From the NCBI GenBank assembly GCA_039906565.1, contig JBDMAX010000536.1, positions 161,716 through 204,218 on the forward strand: a stretch of 42,503 nt of DNA. The letters are read 5' to 3'. The stretch is from Aegotheles albertisi. Taxonomy: Eukaryota. Positions 2,341-29,884 of the stretch are shown here, piece by piece; position 1 is the first letter of the stretch, and the number at the start of each line of letters is the position of its first letter. Below the pieces are notes generated by a model. The model had not been told where the DNA came from. It did not search any database and saw nothing but the letters and a program-made list of their open reading frames with translations. Position numbers and translations under genes: made by a program.

Positions 2341-3114
2341 ACACGGTTGCTGTGCGTCCTTTTGGTTTCTTTTCTTTGTCTGTCGGGGGTGTTTTGATCA
2401 GGAGGAGGTGATTTGTTTTGAGCAGGCTTCTGCTGACTCAGGGGCTTTCTGGAGGTTGGACTTGCCTAGAGACCTCTTGAAACGTGGCCAGAAACGCCGC
2501 AGATGTCGTTTCCTGGGGAAAACAGAGGGATTTGCCCATTCCCGTGGATTTTATGACACGTTGGAATTAAACCTGGGGGTCAGGGGGTTGCTGGGGTTGT
2601 TCCTGACCTGCGTTCACTCGTTTCTGCCAGAGAATTCATTTGCTCTGGGGCTCGCCGTAGGGCGAGAGGAACGGGCAGGACCAATGCACAGCCTGGATGC
2701 AGAACAGTCCTAAATGTCGCCTCCGGCCCGCGGGGAGCAGTTTGAGCCTTCTCTTTGCTTTTGTTGGTTGTTTTTGGGTTTTTTTTAAGACAATGTTAGT
2801 GTTTTGCCTGAGCTTTCAGTATCTTTTCCTAAAGGGTCATTTTGTTTACTCAATTTTGCACAGGGCTGCTGGCTGTAACGGCCTGGCTGCGTCAGGTAAA
2901 CGTTGACCTGCTGGGTTGGTGGCTTCGTGAACGTCAGATGCCTTCTGGAAGCCTCGGCGTGCAACTGGAGAAGGTGTGAGGTGGCTTTTCTTTGTTCCAA
3001 GCTCATCGGGGATTAATTTTGGTCCCCAGAATTTGGGAGAATTCGGGGTGTGGAGTCACCAACGCGATTTGCGACATCGCGTTTGAAACAAAACCAAAAA
3101 GTCACCGACTCCCA

Positions 3115-3640
3115 GAGTGGTTTGGGTTGGAGGGGACCTTAAAGCTCATCCAGTGCCACCCCACCGCCGTGGGCTTGTGTGCGCTTGGAGCTCAAAAAGC
3201 CCCTGGGATCCTGGGCTGTGTCACCTGCAGCGTGAGCAGCAGGGCGAGGGAGGGGGTGATGGTTCTCCTCATCTGCTCTGCTCTGCTCTGTGAGAGCCCT
3301 CCCTGTGATGCTGGGGCCAGGTCTGGGCTCCCCAGCATCAGAAGGACACGGAGCTGTTGGAGCGAGTCCAGAGGAGGCCACGGAGATGCTCGGGGAGCTG
3401 GAGCAGCTCTGCTCTGGGGACAGGCTGAGAGAGTGGGGGGTGTTCAGCCTGGAGAAGAGAAGGCTCGTGGAGACCTTAGAGCACCTTCCAGTGCCTGAAG
3501 GGGCTCCAGGAAAGCTGGAGAGGGACTGGTGCCAAGGGCAGGGAGTGATGGGACGAGGGGGAACGGGTTCCAACTGAAGGAAGGTGGATTTAGACTGGAT
3601 TTTAGGAGGTTCTTCACTGCGTGGGTGGTGGGAATGTGTG
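3115..3640 (+). mobile_element. CR1-type LINE 3'-region fragment (avian interspersed repeat). It is truncated at the point where duplicate copy 2 begins.
   Basis: Motifs GGTTTGGGTTGGAGGGGACCTTAAAGCTCATC, TGTTCAGCCTGGAGAAGAGAAGGCTC, GGTTCCAACTGAAGGAAGGTGGATTTAGACTGGATTTTAGGAGGTTCTTCACTG match the common avian repeat recognised from memory. Confidence 0.55.
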
Positions 3641-3925: not shown

Positions 3926-6157
3926 CAGTGTGAGTTTTGGTCCATTTACGTGTTCAGAGCTCTGGTTCTTGGCCTGGTACTGGATGTTACTGGAGATGCT
4001 TCGGCGTTATCTGAATGCGTCTCCGGCTCCCCAGAGCAGAACAGTGTTCGCAAATGCTGCTGGAGAGATTTGGTGGCAAACTTAACGAGCCAGGATGGAC
4101 CTGCCCAGCAATCCCCCATCTGCAGGGCTGGCTTGGTCTGGGTCAGCTTCCCGGGCTGCATGTGCAAAAGAGAAGTTGCAGCTCTCTGGTCAGTCTTGAT
4201 CTAAACCCAAGGTGGTTCCTGTTTGTGCCCAGACACCTGAGAGAGACCTAAATGTTTCAGGCAACCCAAGAGGAGGGCCCTGATGTTCATAAGAAATTCT
4301 TAACAGCTGTTTTTGCAGGTGACTCAACTGAGGAGTGAGAACCTAAAGCTGCTGGGGCTCATCTAGCTGCAATGAGGATGGAATGAATTATTGAAGTGCA
4401 CAGGGTAAGTGGCAATCAAGGTACTCAAACCTCGCTCGCTCTCTGTCTTCTGGGATCTGTGCCTGGCATTGCTCACCAGGATTTTGCAGCTGCAGGGGCT
4501 GGAGGAATTAGCCAGGGTGGGGAGGAGGGAACAGCAGCAGCAGCATCGATCCTTCTCTTCCCACTCTCTGTCTCTTTTGTCCATTTTCATGAGATCTTTC
4601 TGCTACCTATTAATGGGGATTTCAAAACCTCATGAAGAGCACAGAAGAGGATTGAAGAGGTGACTGAAGGAGATGGGAGGAGAATGTTTAAGAGCAATTG
4701 ATTTAATGGGAATAAACTGCTTCAGGTGAAGTCAGGCTCTTCACTTTAGAATCACAAGAAACATCACACCACAAAACACACAGTCGCAACAATGGGAGAT
4801 GCTTCACCTTGTTCTGATGAGAGATGTGGTTGCTTTCCAAACCTTTCAGTCCACCTTCTAGTCCTGAGATGCTGCAGGCAAGTCCGTTTCCTTTTTGTGT
4901 GAATTAAATCACCATCATTTCTGCGAAGAGCATGAGCCAACACCATGTGGATGGCCAGAGGATTTGAAGGCAATCCTATGGTCCGTAGTAGAACATCACT
5001 GCACCACCCTGGGCAGTGCCAAAGCCAACAGCAGAGAGTATTTCCTCGTAAGGCAGCCCCAGGAGAGGAGCAGCAGCAGCCTGTTTTGGAGAGTGGTCTT
5101 CACACCATTTCAGGGTGGCAGCGTGGTCTGGTGCAGGCTTGTGCTCCCACCAGGACTGCAGGCACACACAGGGCAAGTCAGAAATGGCACCGGGTGTTCC
5201 TTGGTGACAGAAACCCCAGCGCCCGCCGTCACACTTCTCACTGGTTGGTGTGGCATGGGCTTGTCTTCTGAAATTTCTGCCTGAAAGGTAAGGACTGGAT
5301 TTCGAAGGCATCCAGAGAGGCCCCAGGGTGTGTGCTAGAGCAGTGACTGGTTAGCGGTTACATTTTTAATGCAAGCACTGACGTGTCAGAGTGGTGCCTC
5401 TGCTTCCTAGAACACCACCTGGGAACCTCTGAAAGTGTGCACCGCTTCTCCTCTCCTGCATCGATACATTTGCAGTAACTGAGAAACAAAATATAAATTA
5501 TTGCTTCATCTGCAGGCGGGAAAATGCAATTTCCAGTTGATGTTTTCCTTAGAAGACCATACCTAGGTATTAAAACCACATTACATTGCATTGCTCACAC
5601 TGTGCTCACACAGCAATCAGAAAATGACCTCTCTTGGAATTTTATTAGAAGTCTTAGAGATTTGGCAACACTGGTGATGGGTTTGCCCTCTCCCAAAGGA
5701 GGGAGTTAACCGGGGTCTGTCACTGTATTGGTCACCCCCTGCCTCACACCTCTGTTTGCTGCCTTGGCAGAAATTCAGTTGTCAGCCCTCTCACTTTCTC
5801 TCAGGAAGGACAGGAGAGGCAAAGTCCCAAAGGGTGCTGTGGACTGCAAAGATGTGCCCTTAACTGTCCCACAGTTCATCAGTCACAACCATGGCCATTG
5901 TACAGAGAAAACCAATCCTAAAACATCCACTTGAGATCCTGCAGTCTTGTTAGAGCACCCAGCAGAGGTGAGCGTGCCGTCAGGCTCTGTTTCCACTGGC
6001 AAGGGCATATGGCAGCAGATAGTCTGTATTGTACATCACTCTGTTGGGCTTGGGTGCCACAGTAGATGCTTCTGTCTGCTGTTAACTCCACAAAAAGGGT
6101 TTTGGATACAGTTTGATAACCTGAGGGTACCCGAGAGCAATTTCCTTATCATGGAAA

Positions 6158-7423
6158 CTCAGGGTTTAGGGGGGAGCTGTTATTGTGGGGGACACTGAGG
6201 GGTTTGGGGGGGACACCCAGGGTTTAGGGGGAGCTGTTATTGTGGGGGACACTGAGGGGTTTGGGGGGACACCCAGGGTTTAGGGGGAGCTGTTATTGTG
6301 GGGGACACTGAGGGGTTTGGGGGGACACCCAGGGTTTAGGGGGGAGCTGTTATTGTGGGGGACACTGAGGGGTTTGGGGGGGACACCCAGGGTTTAGGGG
6401 GAGCTGTTATTGTGGGGGACACTGAGGGGTTTGGGGGGACACCCAGGGTTTAGGGGGGAGCTGTTATTGTGGGGGACACTGAGGGGTTTGGGGGGGACAC
6501 CCAGGGTTTAGGGGGTGGCTGTTATTGTGGGGGACACTGAGGGGTTTGGGGGGGACACCCAGGGTTTAGGGGGGCTGTTATTGTGGGGGACACTGAGGGG
6601 TTTGGGGGGGACACCCAGGGTTTAGGGGGAGCTGTTATTGTGGGGGACACTGAGGGGTTTGGGGGGACACCCAGGGTTTAGGGGGGAGCTGTTATTGTGG
6701 GGGACACTGAGGGGTTTGGGGGGGACACCCAGGGTTTAGGGGGTGGCTGTTATTGTGGGGGACACTGAGGGTTTTGGGGGGGACACCCAGGGTTTAGGGG
6801 GAGCTGTTATTGTGGGGGACACTGAGGGGTTTGGGGGGACACCCAGGGTTTAGGGGGGAGCTGTTATTGTGGGGGACACTGAGGGGTTTGGGGGGACACC
6901 CAGGGTTTAGGGGGGAGCTGTTATTGTGGGGGACACTGAGGGGTTTGGGGGGACACCCAGGGTTTAGGGGGAGCTGTTATTGTGGGGGACACTGTGGGGT
7001 TTGGGGGGGACACCCAGGGTTTAGGGGGGAGCTGTTATTGTGGGGGACACTGAGGGGTTTGGGGGGGACACCCAGGGTTTGGGGGGGCTGTTATTGTGGG
7101 GGACACTGAGGGGTTTGGGGGGGACACCCAGGGGTTAGGGGGGAGCTGTTATTGGGGGGGACACTGAGGGGTTTGGGGGGACACCCAGGGTTTAGGGGGA
7201 GCTGTTATTGTGGGGGACACTGCGGGTTTGGGGGGGACACCCAGGGTTTAGGGGGGAGCTGTTATTGTGGGGGACACTGAGGGGTTTGGGGGGGACACCC
7301 AGGGTTTAGGGGGAGCTGTTATTGTGGGGGACACTGAGGGGTTTGAGGGGGACACCCAGGGTTTAGGGGGAGCTGTTATTGTGGGGGACACTGAGGGGTT
7401 TGGGGGGGACACCCAGGGTTTAG
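6158..7423. repeat. G-rich minisatellite, ~56-57-bp unit (GGGGGACACTGAGGGGTTTGGGGGGACACCCAGGGTTTAGGGGGAGCTGTTATTGT), ~22 copies.
   Basis: Direct tandem periodicity. Each unit contains GGGTTTAGGG and four or more G-tracts. Confidence 0.9.
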
Positions 7424-7500
7424 TGTACGTGCCGCCCCCCGCCCCCCGTGTGCCTCTGCATGTGCCGTCCCATCCCCTGCGTGTCTGTCGTGCCCCCGTG
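7424..7500. repeat. Low-complexity pyrimidine/GT-rich tract (CCCCGTGTGCC-like).
   Basis: Composition. A similar tract occurs at 8030-8200. Confidence 0.6.
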
Positions 7501-8029
7501 TTAGAGTTCAATCAGACAAGTTGAGTCCAGCTTGGATTTACTCAGTATTTATTCAAGGTAGGAGAGCAAAACCAGCGCTGGGCAGCCGGTAGAGTCACAG
7601 CTCTACCTTGGCTCGCGAGTTTAGATCAGCAAAGCAGCTCTTTCTATCTTCGGGGAAGTCCTTATCGAGAATCTTCGTCCCGCCTTTCATCCTGGCTGCT
7701 CTGGGTTGGCCCTTTTCTTGTGGTACTTCTGATAACCATAGGTGTTGAAGAGATACACATTATCCCCCCATAGCACTGCCACAGAGGCCTAGAGCAGAGA
7801 GATACATTATCAGAGTGACACAACATTACAGTCTGACACTTGTCTGAGACTCCAGCCCTGGGAACATTGTGGTTTGAGGCTCAGCTCGTGTAAATTGACA
7901 GAGATGGTTTATAACAGCAGATATTGATAAGCCTGTGAGTCCTGTATCGCTTTAAATGTTGGCAATCGCCATGCGTGGTGCTGCAACTCCCGATTATAAT
8001 CAGCAAATTGCTCTTGCTTACTTATTACA

Positions 8030-8200
8030 CCCGCGTGCCGTGTGTCCCCCCGCCCATGCGTGTGTCTGTCATCCCCCTGTCCATCCGTGTGTCGTATCCC
8101 CCCCGTGTATCCGTCTTCCCCCGTCCGTGTGTCCATCTGCGTGTCGTGTCCCCCCCGTGTGTCTGTCTGTGTGTCTGTCCCTGTCCTGAAATGAACGGCT
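8030..8200. repeat. Low-complexity CCCCGTGTGTC(C/T)(A/G)TC imperfect tandem tract.
   Basis: Repeated GTGTGTC / CCCCCGT motifs. Confidence 0.6.
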
Positions 8201-8544: not shown

Positions 8545-9108
8545 GTCTTGTGGAAAACTGTGGGTGCCTTGGGACATCCTGAAGCACAGCTACAAACCCT
8601 CTTACTTTTATATCCAGAAGGACATCCAGGAAGGCCTCGTAGGAATCCGAAACAGCTTTGCAGCTCAGGCACGTGACTGGAAGGCAAATGGAAATGCTCA
8701 GCGACGGGGGAAGGCGACTGTGCCGCTTTACTCTCCGCACGCCTCCTACTCCAGCCGCACCGTTGGCTCCTTCTCACAGGCAGTCAGGAGGGCACAGAGA
8801 CACCCAGGACAGCAAGAGTTGTGCAAACGTACCTCTGGACCTCAGGGAGCCCCCAAATATTTGATGGACGATGGTCGTGTGTTGCGAAGCCACGTCCAAG
8901 CTGGAAAGAAAGGGTAAGGCAGAGAGTTATCTCCTCCAAGAGTTTGACTGTCTCTGGAAACCCTGGGTATGGGTTCTCCTTGATGGGAGCACATCAGGGA
9001 GCCCAAAGGACTCAGGGACACGGGAGAGATGATGTGCTTGTGCTTACTTGCTGCTCCCACGCAGGCAAGCTGTCTGCATGGCCCCGACAGCACAGCGCAG
9101 GAACTCAC
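8545..9108. repeat. Copy 1 of a ~560-bp segmental duplication (partner at 15133-15697). It carries a duplicated 3' fragment of a USP exon.
   Basis: Near-identical sequence. The same ORF (68 aa, MQLRHVTGRQMEMLSDGG...) recurs at 8658 and 15246. Confidence 0.85.
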
Positions 9109-11501: not shown

Positions 11502-12681
11502 TCACCTCTGGGGCACTGAAACCCTCCTACTCCTCCCCCTCCTTCCCGAGGAGTCACAGTCTGTGGTTTGCTGACTCAGGAGATCACGGCCCCGCCGTGG
11601 GGATCTGCTCCGCTCTCTCTTCCTCAGGAGGGTTTGCTGCCAAGCAGCCCTGGGGGCAGGAGCCCACTTGGAGCTGGTGTTGGAGGGCCCTGCAGCTTCA
11701 TCATCCCGTGGGGCTCGGACACAATGTGGAGGACTTGTTCTCCACCTGCCCCTCGCTGAGCGGTGGGAGTCCGTGTACTCCCCCAAAGGGCTGCGGAGCT
11801 CACAGCCCCGCTGGGGGGATCTGCTCCGCTCTCTCTTCCCTGGTAGGATTTGCTGCTGAGCAGCCCTGGGTGCAGGAGCCAACTCGGAGCTGCCACTGGG
11901 GAGCCCTGGAGCTGCCTCATCCCTGGGAGCAGATTCACGGCTCGGAGAGGCAGTTCTCCTCCTCTTCCCTGCTGAACAGTCGTAGTCTGTGGGCTCCATG
12001 GCCCAGCTGCGGAGATCATTGCCCCACTGTGGGGATCTGCTCCGCGCCCTCTCCCTGGCGCTGTTCCTCTGGCAGTGGGAAGAAGGGATAAATCCGTGCT
12101 GCTCTGTCCTGCTGTCCTCTTGACTGGTGTGCAGCCACCCTGCAGATGCCTCCTGTGCTCCTGCCTGGGCTGGCTGGCTTGTGCTGGCTGCGGAGGAGGA
12201 GCTGCTCTCCTCTGGAGACTCCTCCATGCCCTCTGCCACCTCCTGCAAAGAGAGCTGTGAAAAGGTCCTGCCCTCTCCTCCAGAAAGGACCAGGGCAGTG
12301 GGGAACCCCCAGAAGCTCTGTGAGGGGACAGCTGAGGGCCTCCCAAAGGCTCTCCTGGAGGGCTGCAAAGGCAGGAGGGTCAAAGGCGGACAAATGGGAT
12401 GGATCCAAGTGGGATGCTTTGAGAGGAAGCAGTGTTGCCGCTCTGAAGAAAGCTGCAGTGTGGCAGGGAGAAGAGCAGTGCCGAGATCCCAGAAGGAAAT
12501 CCACTGTCCATCTGGTGTCCTCACCCACCTCCCCAGAGTCACCTCAGTCCTACCAGGCAGAGCCTGTGGTCCCACAGAACCCACCTGCTCTCTGCTGGCC
12601 ACCCGCTGACCGAGCAAGGAGGAGGGAGACGATGGTGCTGCTGAGGAAGAAGCCCCTTCTCCACTTTTCAAATCAGAGCAC
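11502..12681 (-). CDS. USP42: USP36/USP42-family deubiquitinase, terminal coding exon. The Arg/Ser-rich C-terminal tail has three ~75-aa tandem repeats (KRERSRSP...APRDEAA...APAPRAAQQ). Stop codon at 11502-11504.
   Basis: Acceptor TTTTCTCCAG|G at ~12682. The phase matches the upstream exon, giving ...LFYVR|CSDLKSGEG. Arg/Ser-rich C-terminal exon, as in USP42. ~225-bp DNA tandem repeat x3 (11580-12060). Confidence 0.6.
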
Positions 12682-12892
12682 CTGGAGAAAACAAGAGTGA
12701 TCTCTGTTTAGGGCTCTTCCTGCAGCCCCCTCTGGGGTTCAGTCATTTTCTTGGAGCGGGTCCTAGGACAGAGGGAAGATGTAACCCAGACTACACATGG
12801 GAAACTCAACTGGGGTCTTCCCACCCGCTCTGCCCCTGTCGCAGCACGGCCTCAGCTTTATAACCCCTGCGGCTTCGATTCCAGACAACCAT

Positions 12893-13250
12893 AGAGTGGT
12901 TTGGGTTGGAAGGGACCTCAAAGATCATCTGGTTCCAACCCCCTGCCATGGGCAGGGACACCTCCCACCAGCCCAGGGTGCTCCGAGCCCCATCCAGCCT
13001 GGCCTGGAACACTGCCAGGGAGGGGCAGCCACAGCTTCTCTGGGCACCCTGGGCCAGGCTCTCCCCACCCTCACAGCAAAGAATTTCTTCTTCAGATCTG
13101 ATCTAAATCTACTCCCTGTCAGTTTAAAACTGTTACCCCTGCCCTGTCACTGCACTCCGTGCGCAAGAGTCCCCCCCAGCTTTCCTGTAGGCCCCCTTTG
13201 ATTACTCCCCTCTCCATTAGCAGCCTCAGAGAGCAGACGAGTAGCAGTTT
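12893..13250 (-). mobile_element. CR1-type LINE 3'-region fragment (avian interspersed repeat), intronic in the USP gene.
   Basis: GGTTTGGGTTGGAAGGGACCTCAAAGATCATCTGGTTCCAACCCCCTGCCATGGGCAGGGACACCTCCCACCAG...CTCACAGCAAAGAATTTCTTC. Confidence 0.6.
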
Positions 13251-13447
13251 ACACCAGGGCAGCAGCCTAGAGCCCAGCAGGGACAATGAGGAGTGACGTG
13301 GGCTGGTTCAGGTGTGACAGCACCGAATGGTGCAGGTAGGAATTGTCTCCTCTGACAGGAAAAGGAACACTCAGGAGGGTGAGGGGGGAAAGAGCAAAGC
13401 CAGGAAGAGGAGACATACTCTGAACACATACTAATACTGGTTATTAC

Positions 13448-13548
13448 CTGACATAAAACAGTAAATAGGCTTTCTGCTTGAGAACTTTGGCGATGCCACA
13501 ACGACGGACATGCTCATCGTTCATCTCGTACCAGAGGCCATCGCTGGC
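13448..13548 (-). CDS. USP42: USP36/42-like exon: ASDGLWYEMNDEHVRRCGIAKVLKQKAYLLFYV(R). This is the catalytic Asn/Asp region, C-terminal end of the USP domain.
   Basis: Acceptor TTTTTTGCAG|GCC, donor AG|GTAATA. Matches USP42 [34 protein letters not shown]. Confidence 0.8.
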
Positions 13549-13740
13549 CTGCAAAAAAGGCATCGATATCGAGAGATGAACTGCATGGTTTCTCCACACA
13601 GACACAGGCAGAAAACTACAGAACCAAGAGTACACCAAAAAACTCCAATCCGGCCCCTGAGGAGACCACCTTGGCTGCCGTGAAAGGTTGTCTGCCCTGG
13701 GATACGATTTTCCCTGGGTAGGAAGGAAATTGCTCTTCAC

Positions 13741-13881
13741 CTTTGTGTAGCAGTAGTAGTGTCCTGCATTACAGCTTCCCCCATAATGCACCAGGACAGA
13801 GTACAGGCGGTAGAGCAGCGGTTCTCCAGCTGTCTGAGACACGTACGGCCCAAGATCCAGGTACTCGGGATACCGCACAAC
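13741..13881 (-). CDS. USP42: USP36/42-like exon: VVRYPEYLDLGPYVSQTAGEPLLYRLYSVLVHYGGSCNAGHYYCYTK (His box).
   Basis: Acceptor TCTCCGTAG|G, donor AAG|GTGAAG. Matches USP42 [45 protein letters not shown]. Confidence 0.85.
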
Positions 13882-14210
13882 CTACGGAGAGACCAAGAGG
13901 GCTCAGAAATGCTCCTGAAATCCTGCACGACACAGCCTTCCAAGACCAAGGGCCAGAGGTGCACACGCACATCTCTGGGGCTCATGGACACTTGGCTCTC
14001 CCTAAAGCAACATGGCATGGTTTGGGTGTCAGGAGACTCTCCTCAGCCAAAGCTGCTCCCTCGGAGCAGAGTAGGGGCTTCTCTTCCCACGGAACTCTCC
14101 TCTTCCCAGAAGGGAACAGGAAAACTGAACATGAACAGCCTGGGACAGAGCATTCTGCTTCGGGAAAGCTGCCCCGGGAAGAGAAAGGTGCACTCCAGGT
14201 GCACACACAC

Positions 14211-14322
14211 CTTGTTGATCTTCCTGCCGTGGAGATCTCCAAACCTTTTCAGACAGATGGTGAGAACCTTGGGCAGGCGATGGATCGTGTACCCCTTGGA
14301 GGCAGCAGCCACCTGGTCACAC
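14211..14322 (-). CDS. USP42: USP36/42-like exon: (Q)CDQVAAASKGYTIHRLPKVLTICLKRFGDLHGRKINK.
   Basis: Acceptor TTTCCAG|G, donor AAG|GTGTGT. Matches USP42 [37 protein letters not shown]. Confidence 0.8.
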
Positions 14323-14573
14323 CTGGAAACCAAGCACAGAGCCAAGTGTGGACATGGACCCTCACCAGGCACCCTTTCTCCCCCCAGCAATCCAGACATG
14401 CTTTAATGTCTCAAGGACACTCGGGTGTATGGGGCTGCCTTCAAACACAAGCTGTGTCTCATGGCCGTGCATCCCAGCTGCGTGAAAAGCGAACTGCAGC
14501 TCGAGGACACGCAGCACCTTCAGGCAGCCTCTAGGATTCAGATGGCATCACTCATCCTCTTACTGGCTGCATC

Positions 14574-14670
14574 TGAGGCAGTTGTCGCCGTCCAGCTGCT
14601 CGGGTCTCACAAAGTCCTCCAGAGCTGCGGTGACAGATGAGGCTGCCTGGAGGAGTGAGAAAGGAGAGCA
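14574..14670 (-). CDS. USP42: USP36/42-like exon: ...SPFSLLQAASSVTAALEDFVRPEQLDGDNCLRCS(Q). The 5' boundary is uncertain. An upstream exon for the QIFGGYLRSRVKCxxC segment was not found, so the gene may be divergent.
   Basis: Donor CA|GTAAGA. Matches USP42 [22 protein letters not shown]. Phase is compatible with the next exon. The first CxxC of the zinc ribbon was not identified. Confidence 0.45.
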
Positions 14671-15132
14671 CTGAGCTCGGGGAAACGCGCTCGCCCAAAC
14701 ACACACCAGGAGCTGACAAGAAGGCCCAGGGAGCTGAGGCTGAGGAGACCCCCTGTGAACCTGCACGCTGTGCCCAGGATGGGGGCAGGAAGAGGACAAC
14801 GTGCTGAACATCGCCCTCAGTGCCCAGGGATGCCCGGGGCTGTCAAGAGCTCCCTCTCTGGGGCACCGCTCAGTTCAGCTGCGAATGGAGTGCGGGCTCA
14901 TCAATAACGAAAACACCAGAACCCATCAGCCTGGGAGCCAGGCGGGTGTTGAGGGAGGGCACACGCAAGAAGGATGAGAGTACGTCAGGGGCAAAGAGCT
15001 GGTCCAGCTTAAAGCCAGCCCCTGCAGGGATAGCACTGCCGTGGTCTCTCCAGAAGGACACAGTCTATCCCACTTCCCACCCACCACCAAGCTCTCCTAC
15101 ACACCCAGTGTAGGTTTTTAAGACAACTGCAT

Positions 15133-15697
15133 CTATTCTGGAAAGCTGCGGGCACCTTGGGACATCCTGAAGCACAGCTACAAACCCTCTTACTTTTATA
15201 TCCAGAAGGACATCCAGGAAGGCCTCGTAGGAATCCGAAACAGCTTTGCAGCTCAGGCACGTGACTGGAAGGCAAATGGAAATGCTCAGCGACGGGGGAA
15301 GGCGACTGTGCCGCTTTACTCTCCGCACGCCTCCTACTCCAGCCGCACCATCGGCTCCTTCTCACAGGCAGTCAGGAGGGCACAGAGACACCCAGGACAG
15401 CAAGAGTTGTGCAAACGTACCTCTGGACCTCAGGGAGCCCCCAAATATTTGATGGACGATGGTCGTGTGTTGCGAAGCCACGTCCAAGCTGGAAAGAAAG
15501 GGTAAGGCAGAGAGTTATCTCCTCCAAGAGTTTGACTGTCTCTGGAAACCCTGGGTATGGGTTCTCCTTGATGGGAGCACATCAGGGAGCCCAAAGGACT
15601 CAGGGACACGGGAGAGATGATGTGCTTGTGCTTACTTGCTGCTCCCACGCAGGCAAGCTGTCTGCATGGCCCCGACAGCACAGCGCAGGAACTCATG
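15133..15697. repeat. Copy 2 of the ~560-bp segmental duplication. It overlaps the 3' part of the USP exon at 15636-15738 and the downstream intron.
   Basis: Near-identical to 8545-9108. Confidence 0.85.
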
Positions 15698-15738
15698 GGC
15701 GTCTTCCTGCTGGCCCAACTCGAAGTCTGGTCCTATTT
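15636..15738 (-). CDS. USP42: USP36/42-like exon: (E)[33 protein letters not shown](K).
   Basis: Acceptor TCTCTTAG|AA, donor AA|GTAAGC. Matches USP42 [30 protein letters not shown]. Confidence 0.75.
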
Positions 15739-15813
15739 CTAAGAGAGAAGAAGTTAGTAGCTGTGCCCTACAAGAACAGAAGGAAACATCTCAAAGCACC
15801 TGACATGCCTTAC

Positions 15814-15924
15814 CTGTCAGAACATGGACAGGACCCCAAGGCTCAATGGCACCGCCTGAGCAGTGCAGGACCTCATTAACATGTGCCTCCATTATGCACA
15901 TCATGCAGAAGCCTTCCCCACCAT
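15814..15924 (-). CDS. USP42: USP36/42-like exon: (D)GGEGFCMMCIMEAHVNEVLHCSGGAIEPWGPVHVLT.
   Basis: Acceptor CCTCTTCAG|AT, donor G|GTAAGG. Matches USP42 [28 protein letters not shown]. Confidence 0.75.
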
Positions 15925-16349
15925 CTGAAGAGGGAGAGAGGGAGGGAAACTCCTAGGTTAGCAAAACAGCCACAGCGAGGGGAAACCTAAAGGAGATCCC
16001 GAAGGTGTAAGAACAGTCCCCACTCCTCCCAGGGTGACCACGTCCCAACAAGCCTGGGACATTTTAGTGCACAGAATTCAGAGGGACGCTCAACTGCCAG
16101 AAATGTTCTGTGCGAGAAGCAGAGGGTTTAACTTGCAGGAATGGAGCCCCGGGGCTAGCGAGAGGCGCCTGGCTGAAGATGGACACACCTAGATGTGACC
16201 AGCAGCTTCTAGGCGTGAGTGTACAGAGAGCACCAGCTCGGGGGAGTGACAAGGAAGGGCTGCTTTCCTCCTCCATCAAACCCCACATCCTGCGGTTCCT
16301 TGGGAAGTGCCCAACAGGGGCACAAGCAGACCTGTAGGAAAGCACTCAC

Positions 16350-16530
16350 CACAGGACTGGCTGTGCTGCCGAGAGAGCAGGTAGTTGGCCAGCGGGGGGG
16401 TGTAGGTCAGGCACTGCATGACCGAGTTGAGGAAGCACGTGTTGTGCAGGTTGGTGAGCCCTGCTCCAGCTCTCTGTCTCATCTGCCAGGCCATGCAGAT
16501 CTTTTCTGTTAACGCCATTCCCTCGGCCAT
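16350..16530 (-). CDS. USP42: USP36/42-like Cys-box exon: M(16528-16530)[59 protein letters not shown]. This is either the first coding exon, or the acceptor CCCTGCAG just upstream means further 5' exon(s) exist.
   Basis: Catalytic Cys motif GLxNLxNTCFLNS..[11 protein letters not shown]. The EKICxxWQ motif is shared with USP42. Consensus donor G|GTGAGT. Confidence 0.7.
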
Positions 16531-17189
16531 GACTGCAGGGAAGTGACATTGGAACAGAGATCAGACAATGTTGTTGCACGAACACGTATCAAGGCCCTTC
16601 TGAAAGAGTGCCTGGCCTGTCCCCTTCCCTGAAGAGGACAGGACCTGCTGCTGAGCTGCTGCCAGCGCTGGCTGCAGGGCCCCATGGCTCTCCAGCCCAC
16701 ACTTGCTCATCATGTGTGCAGGAGCCACCGGCTGTCGGCCACTCCTTCAACAGCTGCCTTGGCCATGCTGCTGTTCTGTCTCCCTTCCTACCACATCCCT
16801 CAGGCTGGGCTTCTTGTCACCCCAAGCTGAGCTCAGCGCCTGAGGCTACACTGCCACCCCCTGCGTGCCCGGCCCAGGAGACGGCACAGAAACAAGCATG
16901 AGCAAACAGGGAGTCTCCCATAGCCCCGGCCAGCCTGTAAAGGTGTCAGCCCAGCCTAGAGCTGGCAAGGCACAGACCCGCCCGGGCTGTTGTCCTGCAT
17001 TGGCCTACTCTGTCACCTGCCCTCAGAGTGCTGTCGGCATCACCTTGGAGAGAGAAGTGAAGCTGAACACAAGTGGGCACCAAACGCTCAGTGGCTGGGA
17101 AGCAGCAGGCGCACGAGTACACCAGGAGGAGCCGAGTTGTCCCGAGGGGCAGCTCAGCCCAACTGGCTCTCCTTGGCCGCTGCTCGGTA

Positions 17190-17260
17190 CTTATAGCCCT
17201 GGCCACATGACGTCACAATGCCACTTTGTGACGTGTCACCGCCACTTTGTGACACGGGGT
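17190..17260. promoter_or_regulatory. Putative promoter elements upstream of the USP gene: TATA-like CTTATAGCC, a perfect CRE TGACGTCA (17208-17215), and 2x GCCACTTTGTGAC.
   Basis: Motifs seen directly. They lie ~680 bp upstream (on the minus strand) of the Cys-box exon. Function is inferred. Confidence 0.25.
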
Positions 17261-18038: not shown

Positions 18039-18704
18039 AGTGTGGGGTACAAGGTGCCACCGACCCCCAGGGAGCAGCAGGTCCTGGTGGCCTTTCCCAA
18101 GGTCCAGGTGCTGGTGGCGGGGGAGAGATGGGCACAGAGGTGTCCCCGGCAGCCTGGCAGTCGCCGAGCTCGTGGAGGGAGCAGCAGGTCTGGGCCAGCC
18201 TCAGCAGGTGGGGTGGCATCAGGCAGGAGCTGGTGTGCAGGAGCTGTGGGGAGAGAGCGGGGGGAGCATCGACCCCGGGCCTGCCCTGCTGTGAGGGGAG
18301 AGCCCAGCCCCGCCATCGGCCCCTGCAGCACCGCCGGGTGCCGGCAGCAACGGCCACCAAGGCCGGGGGGGGACGGACACCCATCCTGGGGGAGGGGGAG
18401 GCTCCCAGAGCACGGGCGCTGTGCTGGGGGGGCAGCGGAGGGGCCCCGGGCCCGGGCCAGGCCCTGCTGGGCCTCGGGGCAGCCCCCACCCGCTCCATGG
18501 CGGAGCCGGGCCCGGCTCTGCGCAGCGCCCGCTGCTCCCCATGGGCCCGGCAGGGCCGGCACTGCCCGCGCTGGGCCCGCCCTCCCCTGAGGCGATGCGC
18601 GCTCTGATTGGCCCCCCGCCGGGCAGGCGGTGCTGCTGCCCCTGGGACTGCGCTCTGATTGGCTGCCGGGGCTGTCACTCTGGGCAGGGCCTGACAGCCT
18701 GCGC

Positions 18705-21182
18705 TGGGAGTGCTGGGAGAGACTGGGAGAGACTGGGAGAGACTGGGAGAGACTGGGAGAGACTGGGGGCACTGCGGGGGGTACTGGGAGAGACTGGGAG
18801 AGACTGGGAGAGACTGGGAGAGACTGGGGGCACTGCAGGGTGTACTGGTGAGCACTGGGGGCACTGCAGGGTGTGCTGGGAGTGCTGGGAGAGACTGGGG
18901 CGGTGCGGGGGGCACTGGGAGCACTGGGAGAGACTGGGGGCACTGCAGGCTGTACTGGTGAGCACTGGGAGAGACTGGGGGCACTGCAGGGTGTACTGGG
19001 GAGCACTGGGAGAGACTGGGGGCACTGCAGGCTGTACTGGTGAGCACTGGGAGAGACTGGGGGCACTGCGGGGTGTACTGGGGAGCACTGGGAGAGACTG
19101 GGAGAGACTGGGGGCACTGCGGGGGGTACTGGGAGCACTGGGAGAGACTGGGAGAGACTGGGAGAGACTGGGGGCGGTGCGGGGTGTACTGGGAGAGACT
19201 GGGAGAGACTGGGAGAGACTGGGAGAGACTGGGGGCGGTGCGGGGGGTACTGGGAGCACTGGGAGAGACTGGGAGAGACTGGGAGAGACTGGGGGCGGTG
19301 CGGGGGGTACTGGGAGCACTGGGAGAGACTGGGAGAGACTGGGGGCGGTGCGGGGTGTACTGGGAGCACTGGGAGAGACTGGGAGAGACTGGGAGAGACT
19401 GGGGGCGGTGCGGGGGGGACTGGGGGTACTGGGAGAGACTGGGAGAGACTGGGGGCACTGCAGGGTGTACTGGTGAGCACTGGGGGCACTGCAGGGTGTG
19501 CTGGGAGTGCTGGGAGAGACTGGGGCGGTGCGGGGGGCACTGGGAGCACTGGGAGAGACTGGGGGCACTGCAGGCTGTACTGGTGAGCACTGGGAGAGAC
19601 TGGGGGCACTGCAGGGTGTACTGGGGAGCACTGGGAGAGACTGGGGGCACTGCAGGCTGTACTGGTGAGCACTGGGAGAGACTGGGGGCACTGCAGGGTG
19701 TACTGGGGAGCACTGGGAGAGACTGGGGGCACTGCAGGGTGTACTGGGGAGCACTGGGAGAGACTGGGGGCACTGCGGGGTGTACTGGGAGCACTGGGAG
19801 AGACTGGGGGCACTGCAGGCTGTACTGGGGAGCACTGGGAGAGACTGGGGGCACTGCAGGCTGTACTGGTGAGTACTGGGAGAGACTGGGGGCACTGCAG
19901 GCTGTACTGGTGAGCACTGGGAGAGACTGGGGGCACTGCAGGCTGTCCTGGTGAGCACTGGGAGAGACTGGGGGCACTGCAGGGTGTACTGGTGAGCACT
20001 GGGAGAGACTGGGGGCACTGCAGGGTGTACTGGTGAGCACTGGGAGAGACTGGGGGCACTGCAGGCTGTACTGGTGAGCACTGGGAGAGACTGGGGGCAC
20101 TGCAGGGTGTACTGGTGAGCACTGGGAGAGACTGGGGGCACTGCAGGCTGTACTGGTGAGCACTGGGAGAGACTGGGAGAGACTGGGGGCACTGCGGGGT
20201 GTACTGGGATCACTGGGAGAGACTGGGGGCACTGCAGGCTGTACTGGGAGCACTGGGAGAGACTGGGGGCAGTGCGGGGTGTACTGGTGAGCACTGGGAG
20301 AGACTGGGGGCAGTGCGGGGTGTACTGGGAGCACTGGGAGAGACTGGGGGCAGTGCGGGGTGTACTGGGAGCAGTGGGAGAGACTGGGGGCATTGCAGGC
20401 TCTACTGGTGGGTACTGGGAGAGACTGGGGACACTGCGGTGTGTACTGGGAGAGACTGGGGGCACTGCAGGCTGTACTGGTGAGCACTGGGAGAGACTGG
20501 GGGCACTGCAGACTGTACTGGTGAGCACTGGGAGAGACTGGGGGTACTGCAGGGTGTACTGGGGAGCACTGGGAGAGACTGGGGGCACTGCAGGGTGTAC
20601 TGGGAGCAGTGGGAGAGACTGGGAGAGACTGGGGGCACTGCAGGCTGTACTGGTGAGCACTGGGAGAGACTGGGGGCGGTGCGGGGTGTACTGGGAGAGA
20701 CTGGGAGAGACTGGGGGCAGTGCGGGGTGTACTGGGAGCACTGGGAGAGACTGGGGGCACTGCAGGCTGTACTGGGAGCACTGGGAGAGACTGGGGGCAG
20801 TGCGGGGTGTACTGGTGAGTACTGGGAGAGACTGGGGGCACTGCAGGTTGTACTGGGAGCACTGGGAGAGACTGGGGGCACTGTGGGGTGTACTGGGGAG
20901 TGCTGGGAGAGACTGGGGGCACTGCAGGCTGTACTGGTGAGCGCTGGGAGAGACTGGGGGCACTGCAGGCTGTACTGGGAGCACTGGGAGAGACTGGGGG
21001 CACTGTGGGGTGTACTGGGGAGTGCTGGGAGAGACTGGGGGCACTGCAGGCTGTACTGGTGAGCGCTGGGAGAGACTGGGGGCACTGCAGGCTGTACTGG
21101 GAGCACTGGGAGAGACTGGGGGCACTGCAGGCTGTACTGGGAGCACTGGGAGAGACTGGGAGAGACTGGGAGAGACTGGGGG
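18705..21182. repeat. Intergenic G-rich minisatellite, ~41-bp unit (GGCACTGCAGGCTGTACTGGTGAGCACTGGGAGAGACTGGG) with interspersed GAGACTGGGAGA 12-mers, ~60 copies. All six frames are open.
   Basis: Tandem periodicity. The unit is not a multiple of 3, so the 700-1150-aa ORFs are repeat artefacts. Confidence 0.9.
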
Positions 21183-21440: not shown

Positions 21441-21704
21441 TGATGTGTGGCTGTGTGCTCTGCTTTCACCCCTGAGGCCTCGGAACTCAGCCCTGATGCC
21501 CGCTGGAAAGGATGTGGGGACAAGGCACGATCCCAAACTCCCCCCCAAGGATTCAGCACCAAACAACATCTCCCCACTCCAGAATACCCTAAGGCAGACA
21601 CAGTCAGAAGAGAGAAAATATCCTTTTATTGTGGAGAGCAGCAGCAGGAGCCCAGGAGTCGCCGCGGTCCAGCCGGTAACAGGAACACGAAACCTGCAAG
21701 GGCA

Positions 21705-22120
21705 GAGACCTCAAAGATCATCCAGTTTCAACCCCCCTGCCATGGGCAGGGACACCTCCCACCAGCCCAGGGTGCTCCAAGCCCCAGCCAACCTGGCCTT
21801 GGACACTGCCAGGGAGGGGCAGCCACAGCTTCTCTGGGCAACCTGGGCCAGGCTCTCACCACCCTCACACCAAAGAATTTCTCCCTCCCATCCCATCTCC
21901 ATCTCCCCTCTGGCACTTGGAACCCGTTCCCCCTCGTCCCATCACTCCCTGCCCTTGGCACCAGTCCCTCTCCAGCTTTCCTGGAGCCCCTTCAGGCACT
22001 GGAAGGTGCTCCGAGGTCTCCCTGGAGCCTTCTCTTCTCCAGGCTGAACACCCCCAACTCTCAGCCTGGCCCCAGAGCTGCTCCAACTCTCCCAGATCTT
22101 CATCTTCTCCCCACATCTGC
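21705..22120 (-). mobile_element. CR1-type LINE 3'-region fragment (avian interspersed repeat).
   Basis: AGACCTCAAAGATCATCCAGTTTCAACCCCCCTGCCATGGGCAGGGACACCTCCCACCAGCCCAGG...CCTGGAGCCTTCTCTTCTCCAGGCTGAACACCCCCAACTCTCAGCC. Confidence 0.6.
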
Positions 22121-23250: not shown

Positions 23251-23439
23251 CTGCAGCTCGGGCCCGGCGCGGGCGATGTCCCGGATGGTGTCGGGTCCCA
23301 GCGCCGCCACCACCTCCCGCACGCGCGAGGCCTCCACGTCCGCCAGCGCCTGCGCCCGCGCCGCCTCCGCCTCCGCCCGCGCCCGCTGCGCCCGCACCTC
23401 CTGCGCCTGCGCCCGCTCCAGCCGCGACAGCTCCGCCTC
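23251..23439 (-). CDS. MVP: MVP exon: [63 protein letters not shown] (cap-helix region).
   Basis: Matches human ...[25 protein letters not shown]. Acceptor CCCCCAG|G, donor CAG|GTGAGG. Confidence 0.85.
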
Positions 23440-23523
23440 CTGGGGGCGGGGCCGGACTCAGGACACGCCCCCTCCCGACTGGGGCGGGGCTAATGTTGGT
23501 CCCGCCCCCCAGCCCCCCCTCAC

Positions 23524-23650
23524 CGTCTCGATGGCGATGGCTTCGGCCTTCAGCTTGGCCTGCAGGATCGCGGCCTCCCCTTCGATGCGCGCGGCCTCCG
23601 CTCGCGCCTGCGCCTCCGCCCGCGCCGCCCCTGCGCTCTCCACCGCCGCG
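23524..23650 (-). CDS. MVP: MVP exon: (S)[42 protein letters not shown].
   Basis: Matches human [42 protein letters not shown]. Donor ACG|GTGAGG. Confidence 0.85.
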
Positions 23651-23674
23651 CTGGGGGGGTGGGCAGGACACGGG

Positions 23675-24000
23675 CCATGTGTCCCCAACCCCCCCAGAGT
23701 GTCCCCTGGGGGAGCAGGGACTGTCCCCAACCCCCCCAGAGTGTCCCCTGGGCGAGCAGGGACTGTCCCCAACCCCCCCAAAGTGTCCCCTGGGCGAGCA
23801 GGGACTGTCCCCAACCCCCCCAAAGTGTCCCCTGGGTGAGCAGGGACTGTCCCCAACCCCCCCAAAGTGTCCCCTGGGGGAGCAGGGACTGTCCCCAACC
23901 CCCCCAAAGTGTCCCCTGGGCGAGCAGGGACTGTCCCCAACCCCAAAGTGTCCCCTGGGGGAGCAGGGACTGTCCCCAACCCCCCCAAAGTGTCCCTTGG
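23675..24000. repeat. Intronic 42-bp minisatellite (GTCCCCTGGGGGAGCAGGGACTGTCCCCAACCCCCCCAGAGT), ~8 copies.
   Basis: Tandem periodicity. Confidence 0.9.
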
Positions 24001-24041
24001 GATGGGGCAGGAGCCCCGGTGCCTGTTGGGAAGATGCCGAC

Positions 24042-24158
24042 CTGAGAGCCTCCAGCTCCAGCAGTGCCCTGCGCGCCCGCTCAGCCTCCGCCTGGTCCAG
24101 GAGCCGCTGCCGCTCCAGGCGCCCGCGGGCCTCCTGCGCCAGCCGCTCCGCCTCTTGC
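24042..24158 (-). CDS. MVP: MVP exon: (R)[38 protein letters not shown](S).
   Basis: Matches human [39 protein letters not shown]. Acceptor CCCCAG|G, donor AG|GTCGGC. Confidence 0.85.
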
Positions 24159-24164
24159 CTGGGG

Positions 24165-24875
24165 ACACCGGGGGACACGGGGGGACACGGTGAGGGAATG
24201 GGGGAGCAGGGGACAGGGGGGTGTGGGGCGCATTTAGGGACACGAGGGACATGTGGGGGACATGGATGGACGCAGGGAGATCTGGTGATGTGGGGTGTTT
24301 GGGGACATGGGGGGGTGTGGGGGGACGTGGGAGGACACGGGGGACTGCGGGATGTGGGGGGGTGTCGGGGACTGTGGGATGTGGGGGGGTGTGGGGGAGC
24401 GTGGGGGGACGTGGGGGAGCATAGGGGGAAGTGGAGGGACGTGGTGGGATGTGGGGGAACATGGGACAGTGGGGCATGGGGGGATATGGTGGGGCATGGG
24501 GGGATATGGGGGGACATGAGGGGATATGGGGGGATATGGGGGGACATGGGGGGATATGGGGGGATATGGGGGGACATGGGGGGACATGGGGGGATATGGG
24601 GGGATATGGGGGGATATGGTGGGGCATGGGGGGATATGGGGGGACATGAGGGGATATGGGGGGATATGGGGGGACATGGTGGGGCATGGGGGGACATGGG
24701 GGGATATGGGGGGACTTGGGGGATGTGGAGGAGCGTGGGGGGACGTGGGAGGATGTGGTGGCAAGTGGGGGGACATGGGGGAGCATGGTGGGAAGTGGTG
24801 GGACGTGGAGGGACATGGGGGGACGTGGGGGGACATGGGGGGACATGGGGGGATGGAGGGGGAAGCGGGGGGCCA
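24165..24875. repeat. Intronic G-rich 20-21-bp minisatellite (GGGGGACATGGGGGGATATGG and variants), ~34 copies.
   Basis: Tandem periodicity. Confidence 0.9.
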
Positions 24876-24997
24876 TTTGGAGACACAAAGGACACCAAGT
24901 GGCCTCCTGGGCGCTAGCGTTGATCTCCAGGGACACAGGGGACAACACAGGAGGGACCTTGAGGGACAGGAGATGACACGGGGGGGGGCGTGAGGAC

Positions 24998-25209
24998 CTG
25001 GCAGCAGCCTCCTGGGAGTTGGTGGCGATCTCGATGGCCAACTGGACGCTGCGCTGCAGGGCGTCGCGGGTGCGCTGGTCCACGGGCTCCACGCTCTGGA
25101 TGTCCACGCTGGTCACCACCAGCCCATTGGGGGCGAAGCGGAGCTGCTCCCGCAGCCGCCCGGCCTCGTCGAAGCCAAACACGGCCGAGCAGATGAGACG
25201 GTTGGAGTT
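24998..25209 (-). CDS. MVP: MVP exon: [70 protein letters not shown].
   Basis: Matches human NSARIIRTAVFGFE...[43 protein letters not shown]. Acceptor TCCCCAG|AAC, donor AG|GTCCTC. Confidence 0.9.
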
Positions 25210-25537
25210 CTGGGGACAGCAGGGACGTGTGAGACACCTGGGGACATCAGGGTCACCTCCAGGATGGTGGGGACACACGAAGGATGGAGGGGAACTGGGG
25301 ACACGGGGGGATATCGCTGCCTCCATCAAAGCAGAACATGGTTGAGCAGAAGAGCTGATGGGGGTTCCTGGGCCATCAGGGCTGTGAAGGACACCTGGGG
25401 ACATCGGACACCGAGGGAGGCTCGAGGTGCCACAGGGTGAGACCCGGGGTGACCGTGGGCACCAGCGAGGGGGGCAGCGGCGCTCAGCCGAGGGGACGCG
25501 GTGGTGGGAAGGGACACCCGAGGGACACTGAGGAGAC

Positions 25538-25676
25538 CTTGTGGAAGTCATCGAAGGTGACGGCGGCCACGGCGCCGCGCACGCGGGAGGCCAAGGCCTT
25601 GCAGGCGTCGCCCACGAAGTCGGGGACACTGAAGAGGCGCCCAAGGGCCGCGGGGTCCTCCGGCACCTCGAAGTGC
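25538..25676 (-). CDS. MVP: MVP exon: (W)[46 protein letters not shown].
   Basis: Matches human [48 protein letters not shown]. Donor AAG|GTCTCC. Confidence 0.9.
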
Positions 25677-25681
25677 CTGGG

Positions 25682-26075
25682 GGGGTGGGGGAGATCCGGC
25701 CTCAGGGCCCCGCCCACCCTGGCCACGCCCACCCTGGCCCCGCCCACTGCCATGGCCACACCCCCTCACCGGGCCCCACCCCCTCACCCGGCCACGCCCA
25801 AGTGTGAGACCACGCCCCCCTTAACAGACCCCACCCCCTTCCAGACCACACCCCCAGGCTCCACCCCCACACCTGCGACCACGCCCCCTTCGTTGGCCAC
25901 ACCCCCAGGCCCCACCCCCTCCTCTGGCCCCGCCTTCACCACCAGACTCCACCCCCAAACATGAGGCCCCGCCCCCTCACCTGGCCCCACCCCTATCTCC
26001 CACACCCCCCCAAGGCCACTCCTCCTTTCTGGCCCCGCCCCCTGCCAGACTCCGCCCCCCAGCCCTAGGCCCCGC
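25682..26075. repeat. Second array of GC/GT-box-like decamers ((G)GCCACGCCCCC / CCCCGCCCAC / CCCCACCCCC), ~18 copies, filling an MVP intron.
   Basis: Direct repetition. Same family as 22845-23245. Confidence 0.7.
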
Positions 26076-26079
26076 CCAC

Positions 26080-26278
26080 CAGTTGTAGGCCAGCTGGAGC
26101 TGGAGCCGCGCGTGGTCGGCGGTCTCGATGGTGACGATGTCGGCGCAGAAGTCGGGGCCGAGGCGCAGGCAGAGGCTGCGGCGGGCGTGGGGGCGCTTGG
26201 GGCGCCCGGCCGAGAGCGACAGCACCGTCAGCTGCTCCCCGGGGCCCAGCACCACCAGCTCGGGGCCCAGCACCACCC
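26080..26278 (-). CDS. MVP: MVP exon: (R)[65 protein letters not shown](W).
   Basis: Matches human [67 protein letters not shown]. Acceptor CCGCAG|G, donor TG|GTGGGC. Confidence 0.9.
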
Positions 26279-26374
26279 TGCGGGACCACGGCGTCACCGG
26301 CGTCACCTCCCCTGTGGGGCCCGGAGCCACCGCACAGGGCCAAGGGACACGCGGGTGCCCACCAACACCTGGTG

Positions 26375-29825: not shown

Positions 29826-29884
29826 GAAGGACCCCCATGTGCACGGGTGTCACAGCCATGTCCCTGGTGTCCCCCCCTGCTCAC

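Follow-up and report, generated by a model that had tools for sequence, protein, structure and literature searches.

The window analysed here, a 42,503 nt stretch of DNA from Aegotheles albertisi (contig JBDMAX010000536.1, positions 161,716 to 204,218), carries on its minus strand a USP gene of 11 coding exons, which runs from 16530 to 11502 and has a coding sequence (CDS) of 1851 nt and a product of 616 amino acids (aa). The locus probably represents an intact gene of several exons. It would encode a papain-like cysteine deubiquitinase from the USP36/USP42/USP17 clade and belongs to a multi-copy family of neoavian birds. With little more than even confidence, we lean towards regarding this whole neoavian 'USP42-like/USP17-like 6' family as an undescribed chimera of a deubiquitinase gene and an E3 ligase gene. 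It would have arisen by exon capture, early loss of the RING and amplification of an Arg/Ser segment (1-5 units) and would have expanded rapidly, paralleling mammalian USP17, with the window gene as a RING-less but constrained member. An earlier note on this DNA had proposed a USP36/USP42-family deubiquitinase gene with a possibly missing zinc-ribbon segment. The family is borne out by a full UCH match and by USP36 as the closest structure, and the limits given for the element proved to be the exact ends of the CDS, namely 16530 for the ATG and 11502 for the final base of the TGA. The zinc-ribbon anomaly comes down to two overlooked short exons; the predicted gene is complete, and its family is already auto-annotated in dozens of bird genomes.

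The gene model was built by joining open segments of the three-frame translation at canonical splice sites. All 20 internal splice sites are canonical (AG/GT), the joined exons form a single open frame, and neither a stop nor a frameshift was found in the 616-codon spliced CDS. The Pelecanus crispus locus of the relative P0003 (L001) is collinear with window positions 17259-11145 at ~77-80% identity, introns included, and all splice sites are kept. No full second USP copy was found within the window. Exon 1 (16350..16530, minus strand as for all exons) holds the ATG at 16530, the motif EKICMAWQ and the Cys box with catalytic Cys32 and His29. Exon 2 (15814..15924) has AG/GT boundaries, a continuous frame and no indel relative to the pelican, and exon 3 (15636..15738) encodes the QQEDAHEFL block. 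Exon 6 (14564..14646) ends with NCLRCSQ and contains zinc ligand Cys204, exon 7 (14211..14322) starts with CDQ and contains Cys207, and exon 8 (13741..13881) encodes the His box GSCNAGHYYCY with catalytic His284. Exon 9 (13448..13548) carries catalytic Asp301 within WYEMNDEHV and closes the USP domain (...AYLLFYV), and exon 10 (12543..12681) encodes a Ser-rich linker, RCSDLKSGEGASSS...PGRTE. The USP motifs quoted before, WYEMNDEHV among them, all lie on the minus strand in one spliced frame.

Concerning the conserved QIFGGYLRSRVKCxxC stretch, the earlier note, which found no exon for it, was mistaken, and it was right in stating that the exon phases demand an additional segment. Exon 4 (15421..15488, 68 nt) encodes NLDVASQHTTIVHQIFGGSLRSR and aligns to USP36 'tlvhqifggylrsr'; its translation reads …IVHQIFGGSLRSR, in the three-frame translation …TTIVHQIFGGSLRSR, then GT. 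Exon 5 (15194..15264, 71 nt) encodes VTCLSCKAVSDSYEAFLDVLLDIK, is flanked by AG before and GT after, aligns to USP36 'vkcsvcksvsdtydpyldvaleir' and, with C157 and C160, provides the first of the two CxxC pairs of the zinc ribbon. The required 139 nt (68 + 71) are supplied by exons 4 and 5, so that the anomaly arose from overlooking them and does not lie in the locus itself.

The 3' end of the model required one further decision. Intron 10 (12243..12542, minus strand, 300 nt) is in frame and stop-free in the window, and a 401-codon open frame (12707-11505) was considered as one long terminal exon. This was rejected: 12542-12243 is an intron because it differs from the pelican by a 1-nt and a 13-nt indel, because the homologue model P0028 reads the stretch in another frame, and because RefSeq-type models splice …RTK|DVA.GMEES. 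The position of the exon 10 donor agrees with the homologue models splicing ...RTK|DVA.... Terminal exon 11 (11502..12242) ends with the stop TGA at 11504-11502 and is the putative captured Topors-like coding exon discussed below.

Residues 1-324 of the product form a complete USP domain, followed by a low-complexity tail (residues 325-616). The Pfam UCH profile PF00443 matches the spliced product over its full length (profile 1-254/254, residues 23-322; 196.4 bits, cut-off 23.9, E=8.1e-58). The best solved-structure match is the catalytic domain of human USP36 (8bs9, 8bs3; E=2.5e-115, residues 7-324), aligned with one 1-aa gap; the next-best PDB match is yeast Ubp8 (7e-42). In the USP36 alignment QIFGGSLRSRVTCLSCKAVSD stands opposite qifggylrsrvkcsvcksvsd, and there is no gap at this place; the catalytic residues and the zinc cysteines are aligned as well. 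A large protein search returned 1425 matches, and conservation was counted in 103 full-length relatives. Catalytic Cys32, His284 and Asp301 are present and invariant (103/103), and the oxyanion Asn30, kept in 97/103 relatives, is present as well. The zinc-ribbon cysteines of the fingers subdomain are likewise all in place (C157 and C160, 103/103 relatives; C204 and C207, 101/103), which disposes of the proposal that the zinc-ribbon segment is missing. The claim of intact catalytic residues stands, with the caveat of a Gly29His exchange beside the oxyanion Asn. Further departures at highly conserved positions are Leu38Met, Glu55Gln, Ala271Ser and Gln316Lys, and the window product has a 1-aa insertion at residue 62.

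The best database matches are avian proteins which were automatically named 'ubiquitin carboxyl-terminal hydrolase 42-like' or '17-like protein 6', and the subfamily members among the matches comprise USP42, USP42-like, USP17-like and USP36-like proteins. PDB and database matches alike thus place the closest relatives in the USP36/USP42/USP17 subfamily. Several copies occur per genome, often on one contig, as exemplified by five copies each in Mycteria americana (QYF61_0162xx cluster) and Columba guinea (Q9233_0081xx cluster). Catalytic-domain identity is 66-75% to the neoavian 'USP42-like' clade, 60-64% to true avian USP42 and 49% to a rodent USP17-like protein. In a neighbour-joining tree the window gene sits on a long branch within the neoavian '-like' clade. 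True USP42 forms a different, short-branched clade, the rodent USP17-like protein also stands apart, and USP36 roots outside the group. The exact 616-aa product was not found in a collection of 15 billion proteins, and no relative closer than 75% was found. The separate clade, the lower identity and the apparently Topors-derived tail speak against a bona fide USP42 orthologue, and the 11 coding exons and the 49% identity to the rodent protein against a mammalian DUB/USP17 gene. Collinearity with the pelican locus L001, a Topors-like profile match and three repeat units connect the gene with the neoavian USP42-like family bearing a Topors-type tail. The gene is evidently a member of this multi-copy, fast-evolving neoavian family and a DNA-level duplicate that has retained its introns. 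The earlier suggestion of a rapidly evolving paralogue is in keeping with the identities, the long branch and a catalytic dN/dS (ratio of nonsynonymous to synonymous substitution rates) of ~0.35; the gene is not an orthologue of USP42 or USP36.

Coding constraint was assessed against the pelican locus, with dN/dS calculated by the Nei-Gojobori method. The introns differ from those of the pelican by 41 indel events, or 0.0129 per nt. Over exons 1-10 (1110 nt) there are 2 indel events (21 and 3 nt), both in frame, where 14.3 are expected at the intron rate (Poisson P ~7e-5). Exon 11 shows indels of 147, 3 and 9 nt, followed by a 4-nt and a 12-nt indel solely in the last ~70 nt. This indel pattern is the decisive evidence for coding constraint. 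The catalytic domain has a dN/dS of 0.35 and the tail one of 0.86; the catalytic domain is therefore under moderate purifying selection and the tail nearly unconstrained in sequence. The frame of the tail is preserved despite its near-unconstrained sequence. The earlier note's alternative of a partially degenerate copy finds no support here: there are no stops or frameshifts, the splice sites are canonical, and all indels are in frame except two at the extreme 3' end.

Several observations weigh against an intact gene, and most of them would also be expected of a young unprocessed pseudogene or unexpressed copy, that is, a non-functional DNA-level duplicate which has not yet acquired disabling mutations. 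The Cys box (NLGNTC in the family) has His at position 29, where 98/103 relatives have Gly; His is otherwise confined to three loon paralogues, and two further relatives have Asp. Three elements were lost in this lineage: the conserved N-terminal LFP motif, removed by the 21-nt in-frame deletion in exon 1; the upstream mini-exon which supplies the start codon in the pelican; and a fossil RING segment, deleted from exon 11. The tail with its dN/dS of ~0.86 is near neutral, raw identity to the pelican is practically the same for exons (80.2%) and introns (79.9%), and the extreme C-terminus is frameshifted relative to the pelican. TATA-like and CRE-like (cAMP response element) motifs upstream of the gene are not conserved in the pelican locus, and the neighbourhood shows decay: its RhoGAP gene is interrupted by a stop and by a frameshift, and a copied USP fragment is present. 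As a set, the departures from the family consensus (His29, loss of LFP and mini-exon, RING deletion, C-terminal frameshift) are compatible with relaxed constraint. It also has to be said that a nuclear-targeting role of the tail is proposed by analogy only. Nevertheless, we regard a pseudogene as unlikely, if still worth serious consideration. Its 616 codons extend over 11 exons without stop or frameshift and with canonical internal splice sites, the exonic indels of 21, 3, 147, 3 and 9 nt are in frame, and exons 1-10 show the deficit given above (2 events versus 14 expected, P ~7e-5). Moreover, the catalytic dN/dS is 0.35, catalytic and zinc residues are all kept, and the new ATG lies in a good Kozak context exactly at the start of an exon.

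His29 is the main doubt concerning the predicted deubiquitinase activity. It also suggests another reading, in which the gene is expressed as a pseudo-deubiquitinase which keeps the fold and ubiquitin binding, and in which His29 cripples hydrolysis, leaving a ubiquitin binder or scaffold acting via its Arg/Ser tail. The change from the nearly universal Gly to His (GGC to CAC) takes two nucleotide substitutions, and the intermediate Asp (GAC) is present in two other paralogues; this sub-lineage may therefore have left the canonical Cys box. We consider this quite improbable, given the canonical triad, oxyanion Asn and QQEDAHEF block and the retention of His29 in three otherwise intact loon paralogues, which suggests tolerance. 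A partially degenerate USP copy without the QIFGG…CxxC zinc-ribbon segment has practically no chance of being correct, as the block is present, in frame, in the two exons 15488-15421 and 15264-15194, whose splice sites are canonical, UCH is covered end to end and the USP36 alignment has no gap at the block.

The intact-gene reading leaves the tail to be accounted for. Tandem Repeats Finder (TRF) reports a repeat at 11579-12058 in the terminal exon (period 216, 2.2 copies, 75% match, score 507), and self-BLAST of this repeat gives E=3.7e-30. Unit 1 (11835..12056, minus strand; aa 433-506, 74 aa) reads RERARSRSPQWGNDLRSW…TDYD…APRDEAAPG…APAPRAAQQQ and is followed by unit 2 (11619..11834; aa 507-578, 72 aa) and a truncated unit 3 (11505..11618; aa 579-616, 38 aa), each starting with RER(A)RSRSP. 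The in-frame Arg/Ser repeat described before is thus real, while its description as three units of ~75 aa (~225 bp) was slightly overstated. A hidden Markov model (HMM) of the unit found 1-5 copies in 46/121 proteins (120 sampled relatives and the window product) and none in 18 true USP42 proteins. Unit 1 of the window gene is 61-65% identical to the first units of other species versus 54% to its own unit 2; the array therefore appears to predate the divergence of those bird lineages, and its copy number has varied since. The tail contains 17.5% Ser and 14% Arg, with 15 RS/SR dipeptides in 184 aa, and the repeat region has a net charge of +20 and 12% hydrophobic residues versus 33% in the catalytic domain. 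From this composition residues 325-616 are predicted to be disordered. Pfam found no domain in the tail, including no RING and no RNA recognition motif (RRM); with no RRM beside its Arg/Ser region, the product does not belong to the SR splicing proteins.

The tail has a counterpart in small avian RING proteins. In several relatives a Cys/His-rich segment, CSIWTGRLNIASCVGFCLHRFFCGC…CPVC, lies between the acidic linker and the first repeat unit, and this fossil RING segment (C.IW…CLHRFFC.C…CPVC) is present in 16/121 sampled relatives. In the window gene it is missing at 12134..12135 (minus strand; …AGW^LHTSQED…), where 141-147 nt (47-49 codons, in frame) are absent in comparison with the pelican; no RING remnant was found elsewhere in the window. 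Searching with the pelican tail led to P0138 (E=2e-19), which is 191 aa long and has genuine Pfam RING matches. Its relatives are ~190 aa long and annotated as 'E3 ubiquitin-protein ligase Topors-like' in many birds, and its best solved relative is the ICP0-type RING of equine herpesvirus-1 (1chc, E=1.6e-12). Human TOPORS has a closely similar RING, then …H.VRAEDD…. In BLASTP the exon-11 product is 40% identical to the Topors-like protein P0158 over 107 aa, covering LHT..ED and one entire repeat unit (E=3e-4, composition-corrected, for a notional database of 1e9 residues). A profile of the stand-alone Topors-like proteins matches window aa 407-492 (E=5.7e-8, Z=1e6). Among the other neoavian USP42-like proteins it matches 23, but it matches none of 18 true USP42, 5 palaeognath, 9 anseriform and 1 mammalian USP17 sequences.

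The similarity extends to the DNA around the exon boundary. The junction reads ctctcttggcag|gacATGGC… in stand-alone Topors-like genes, ctctctttgcag|ggcATGGCG… in the pelican USP gene and ctctctttgcag|gagGTGGCA… in window exon 11, so that codon 2 of exon 11 (GTG) occupies the position of the Topors-like ATG. Homology to DNA upstream of stand-alone Topors-like genes reaches ~130-190 nt into the 3' part of intron 10 (L002, E=8e-7; L004, E=1e-9). No USP exons were found within 10 kb on either side of the Topors-like loci of Gymnogyps (L004) and Chroicocephalus (L005) in chromosome-scale sequence, and these stand-alone loci are therefore independent genes. All eight RING ligands (CCCHCCCC) are present in 8/8 stand-alone proteins, and at least two are lost in 14/14 fused proteins from several bird orders (P0002, P0003, P0006, P0009-P0012, P0014, P0023, P0024, P0032, P0045, P0058 and P0060). 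C2 is replaced by Trp in all 14 of these, and C5 is lost in all 14 (Phe in 13, Ser in 1). Since both losses are found in every sampled fused copy, the RING was presumably disabled early, and the window copy then deleted the fossil. The most economical explanation is capture: a duplicate of USP42 acquired a coding exon of a Topors-like gene via that gene's own 3' splice site. In all likelihood the tandem repeat is the amplified post-RING Arg/Ser segment of the Topors-like proteins. With the RING region deleted and no Pfam RING in its tail, the window product falls outside the TOPORS-type RING E3 ligases with their eight zinc ligands.

Some peripheral observations on these genes may be added. 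The stand-alone Topors-like genes are multi-copy in some genomes and lie on chromosomes of 75-112 Mb (L004 on an 85-Mb and L005 on an 87-Mb chromosome), a size that would fit the avian Z. One tail fragment (P0135) bears the public name 'serine/arginine repetitive matrix protein 2-like', and from the names now used in databases (USP42-like, USP17-like 6, SRRM2-like) the relationship cannot be recognised. A literature search yielded gene lists only, and no paper on the avian USP42-like family or its putative Topors-derived tail was found in the library searched. The chimeric origin of the family is well supported by sequence; that it is unpublished cannot be shown. In the crested ibis, the MHC (major histocompatibility complex) class I region lists 'USP42' beside PHF7 and an olfactory receptor gene (PMC4302302), and this 'USP42' may be a member of the '-like' family. 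MHC linkage of the window locus is unsupported; the window holds genes for major vault protein (MVP) and for a RhoGAP but none of the MHC.

With regard to function, the catalytic domain would remove ubiquitin from substrates in the manner of USP36 and USP42. The basic tail with its net charge of +20 and its RSRSP motifs might target the enzyme to nuclear bodies or to partners. This role in localisation or partner binding is proposed because human USP42 has a disordered C-terminus whose positively charged motifs make the protein phase-separate into nuclear speckles (PMC8329168).

Compared with its neoavian USP42-like/17-like-6 relatives, the window gene has the same exon-intron layout, the putative Topors-derived exon 11 and a repeat within their range of 1-5 units; it differs from them in having His29 and the insertion at residue 62 and in being without the fossil RING, the LFP motif and the ATG mini-exon. 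USP42, its closest slowly evolving relative, shares with it the EKICxxWQ motif, a multi-exon catalytic domain and a basic disordered C-terminal region (PMC8329168). True USP42 differs in its length of ~1100-1250 aa and its long (~800 aa), different tail, without a Topors-like segment in the 18 proteins sampled. Identity to USP36 is far below orthologue level, and the window gene is without the USP36-type C-terminal region. The avian Topors-like small RING proteins (~190 aa; for example P0138, P0141, P0145 and P0150) are collinear with the exon-11 product. They share with it an N-terminal acidic/Ser stretch, LHT..ED, RER.RSRSPQ…TDYD…RD.AAPG…APA, the acceptor-ATG junction and upstream DNA. Unlike them, the window product has no RING and therefore cannot be a RING E3, and it carries 2.5 units of the post-RING segment, which is single-copy in the Topors-like proteins.

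The mammalian USP17/DUB-3 genes are lineage-specific, multi-copy offshoots of USP36/USP42 which are more alike within than between lineages; their structure is simple, the presumed result of an mRNA copy having been inserted (PMC2874809). Like the window family, the mammalian DUB/USP17 genes (DUB-3, and USP17L in the RS447 and beta-defensin repeats) form a lineage-specific, rapidly diverging multi-copy offshoot with this pattern of similarity. The window gene differs from USP17 in its 10 retained introns, its apparent origin by DNA-level duplication and its putative Topors-derived tail, which is absent from USP17. Birds thus seem to own a multi-copy, fast-evolving, intron-retaining USP42 offshoot that parallels the independent, retrocopy-like USP17 expansions of mammals. 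Together, the avian and mammalian expansions suggest recurrent pressure on the USP36/USP42 deubiquitinase clade. The inferred history of the tail, with capture of a RING E3 exon, decay of the RING and Arg/Ser amplification, would be a clear example of how a disordered charged tail is acquired and remodelled. The gene itself is ordinary, and the origin of the tail in its family is mildly interesting.

At the 5' end, the alignment to the pelican locus and a conserved donor suggest a non-coding first exon (5' untranslated region) at 17044..17175 on the minus strand, with a donor GT after base 17044 and an uncertain 5' limit. This stretch aligns to the pelican locus upstream of the coding exons, and the donor 'aag|gt(g/a)at' is conserved. 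The putative first exon has no ATG, and the ATG at 16530 would therefore be the first in the spliced mRNA; it stands at the exact start of its exon, and G at both -3 and +4 gives it a good Kozak context. In the pelican the codon at this position is GTC, and the start codon is located in a mini-exon (ATGGCCGCAATGGGGAACGACTCCT|GT) within ~570 nt that are absent from the window. A candidate upstream coding mini-exon, ATG…GACAGCCG|GT near 16765-16720, was rejected by inspection, no in-frame join being possible. A TATAAG box (17198-17186) and a perfect CRE palindrome, TGACGTCA (17215-17208), lie just before the putative first exon, both within a 21-nt x 2.2 repeat in the region 17186-17253. We make no claim of a testis-type promoter because TATAAG and TGACGTCA are not conserved in the pelican.

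The remainder of the window is GC-rich and laden with minisatellites. Directly downstream of the USP gene lies a TAGAP/ARHGAP20-like RhoGAP gene (~10920-9218, minus strand; Pfam RhoGAP E=5e-28 on a hand-repaired translation). Its exon near 9690-9600 reads DFL*SIP, with TGA where RhoGAPs have Arg, and shows an apparent +1 frameshift, a -1 shift being needed to continue as SKLLLNNLCEEWM. It looks like a pseudogene, or else the sequence contains errors. Directly 3' of the last RhoGAP exon seen there is a partial USP copy of 560 nt (8548..9107, minus strand), which reaches from within exon 3, of which it has the 3' part, through exons 4 and 5 with introns 3 and 4 into the first part of intron 5. 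It copies 15136-15695 in the same orientation 6.6 kb downstream at 98.75% identity (self-BLAST), with 2 differences outside the last 20 nt, both intronic. It could be a very recent same-strand duplication, either real or an assembly artefact. No other USP sequence of the window is truly partial and degenerate.

Exons of MVP occupy ~23400-40760 on the minus strand, with Pfam matches to Vault, Vault_3 and MVP_shoulder on the open segments 40756-40367, 36493-36227, 35687-35082, 34806-34381, 26420-25980 and 25701-23461. The MVP introns are full of long minisatellite arrays. In the window as a whole such arrays, with periods of 18-80 nt and a strong GC skew, make up roughly 40% of the sequence (6153-7423, 18704-21180, 26391-29811, 30160-33995, 35656-36265, 36450-40234 and 40670-42485), many of them inside MVP introns. 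Dispersed repeat copies of ~84% identity are found at 12908-13195, in intron 9 of the USP gene, and at 21701-21990, and also at 12893-12953 versus 3114-3174; by eye, the sequence resembles the 3' end of an avian CR1 LINE (long interspersed nuclear element). Finally, an AT-richer unique block at ~7500-8030 on the minus strand, located within G-rich minisatellite, starts with TGTAATAAG, contains AATAAA and ends with CTCTAACA; it looks like a solo long terminal repeat (LTR).

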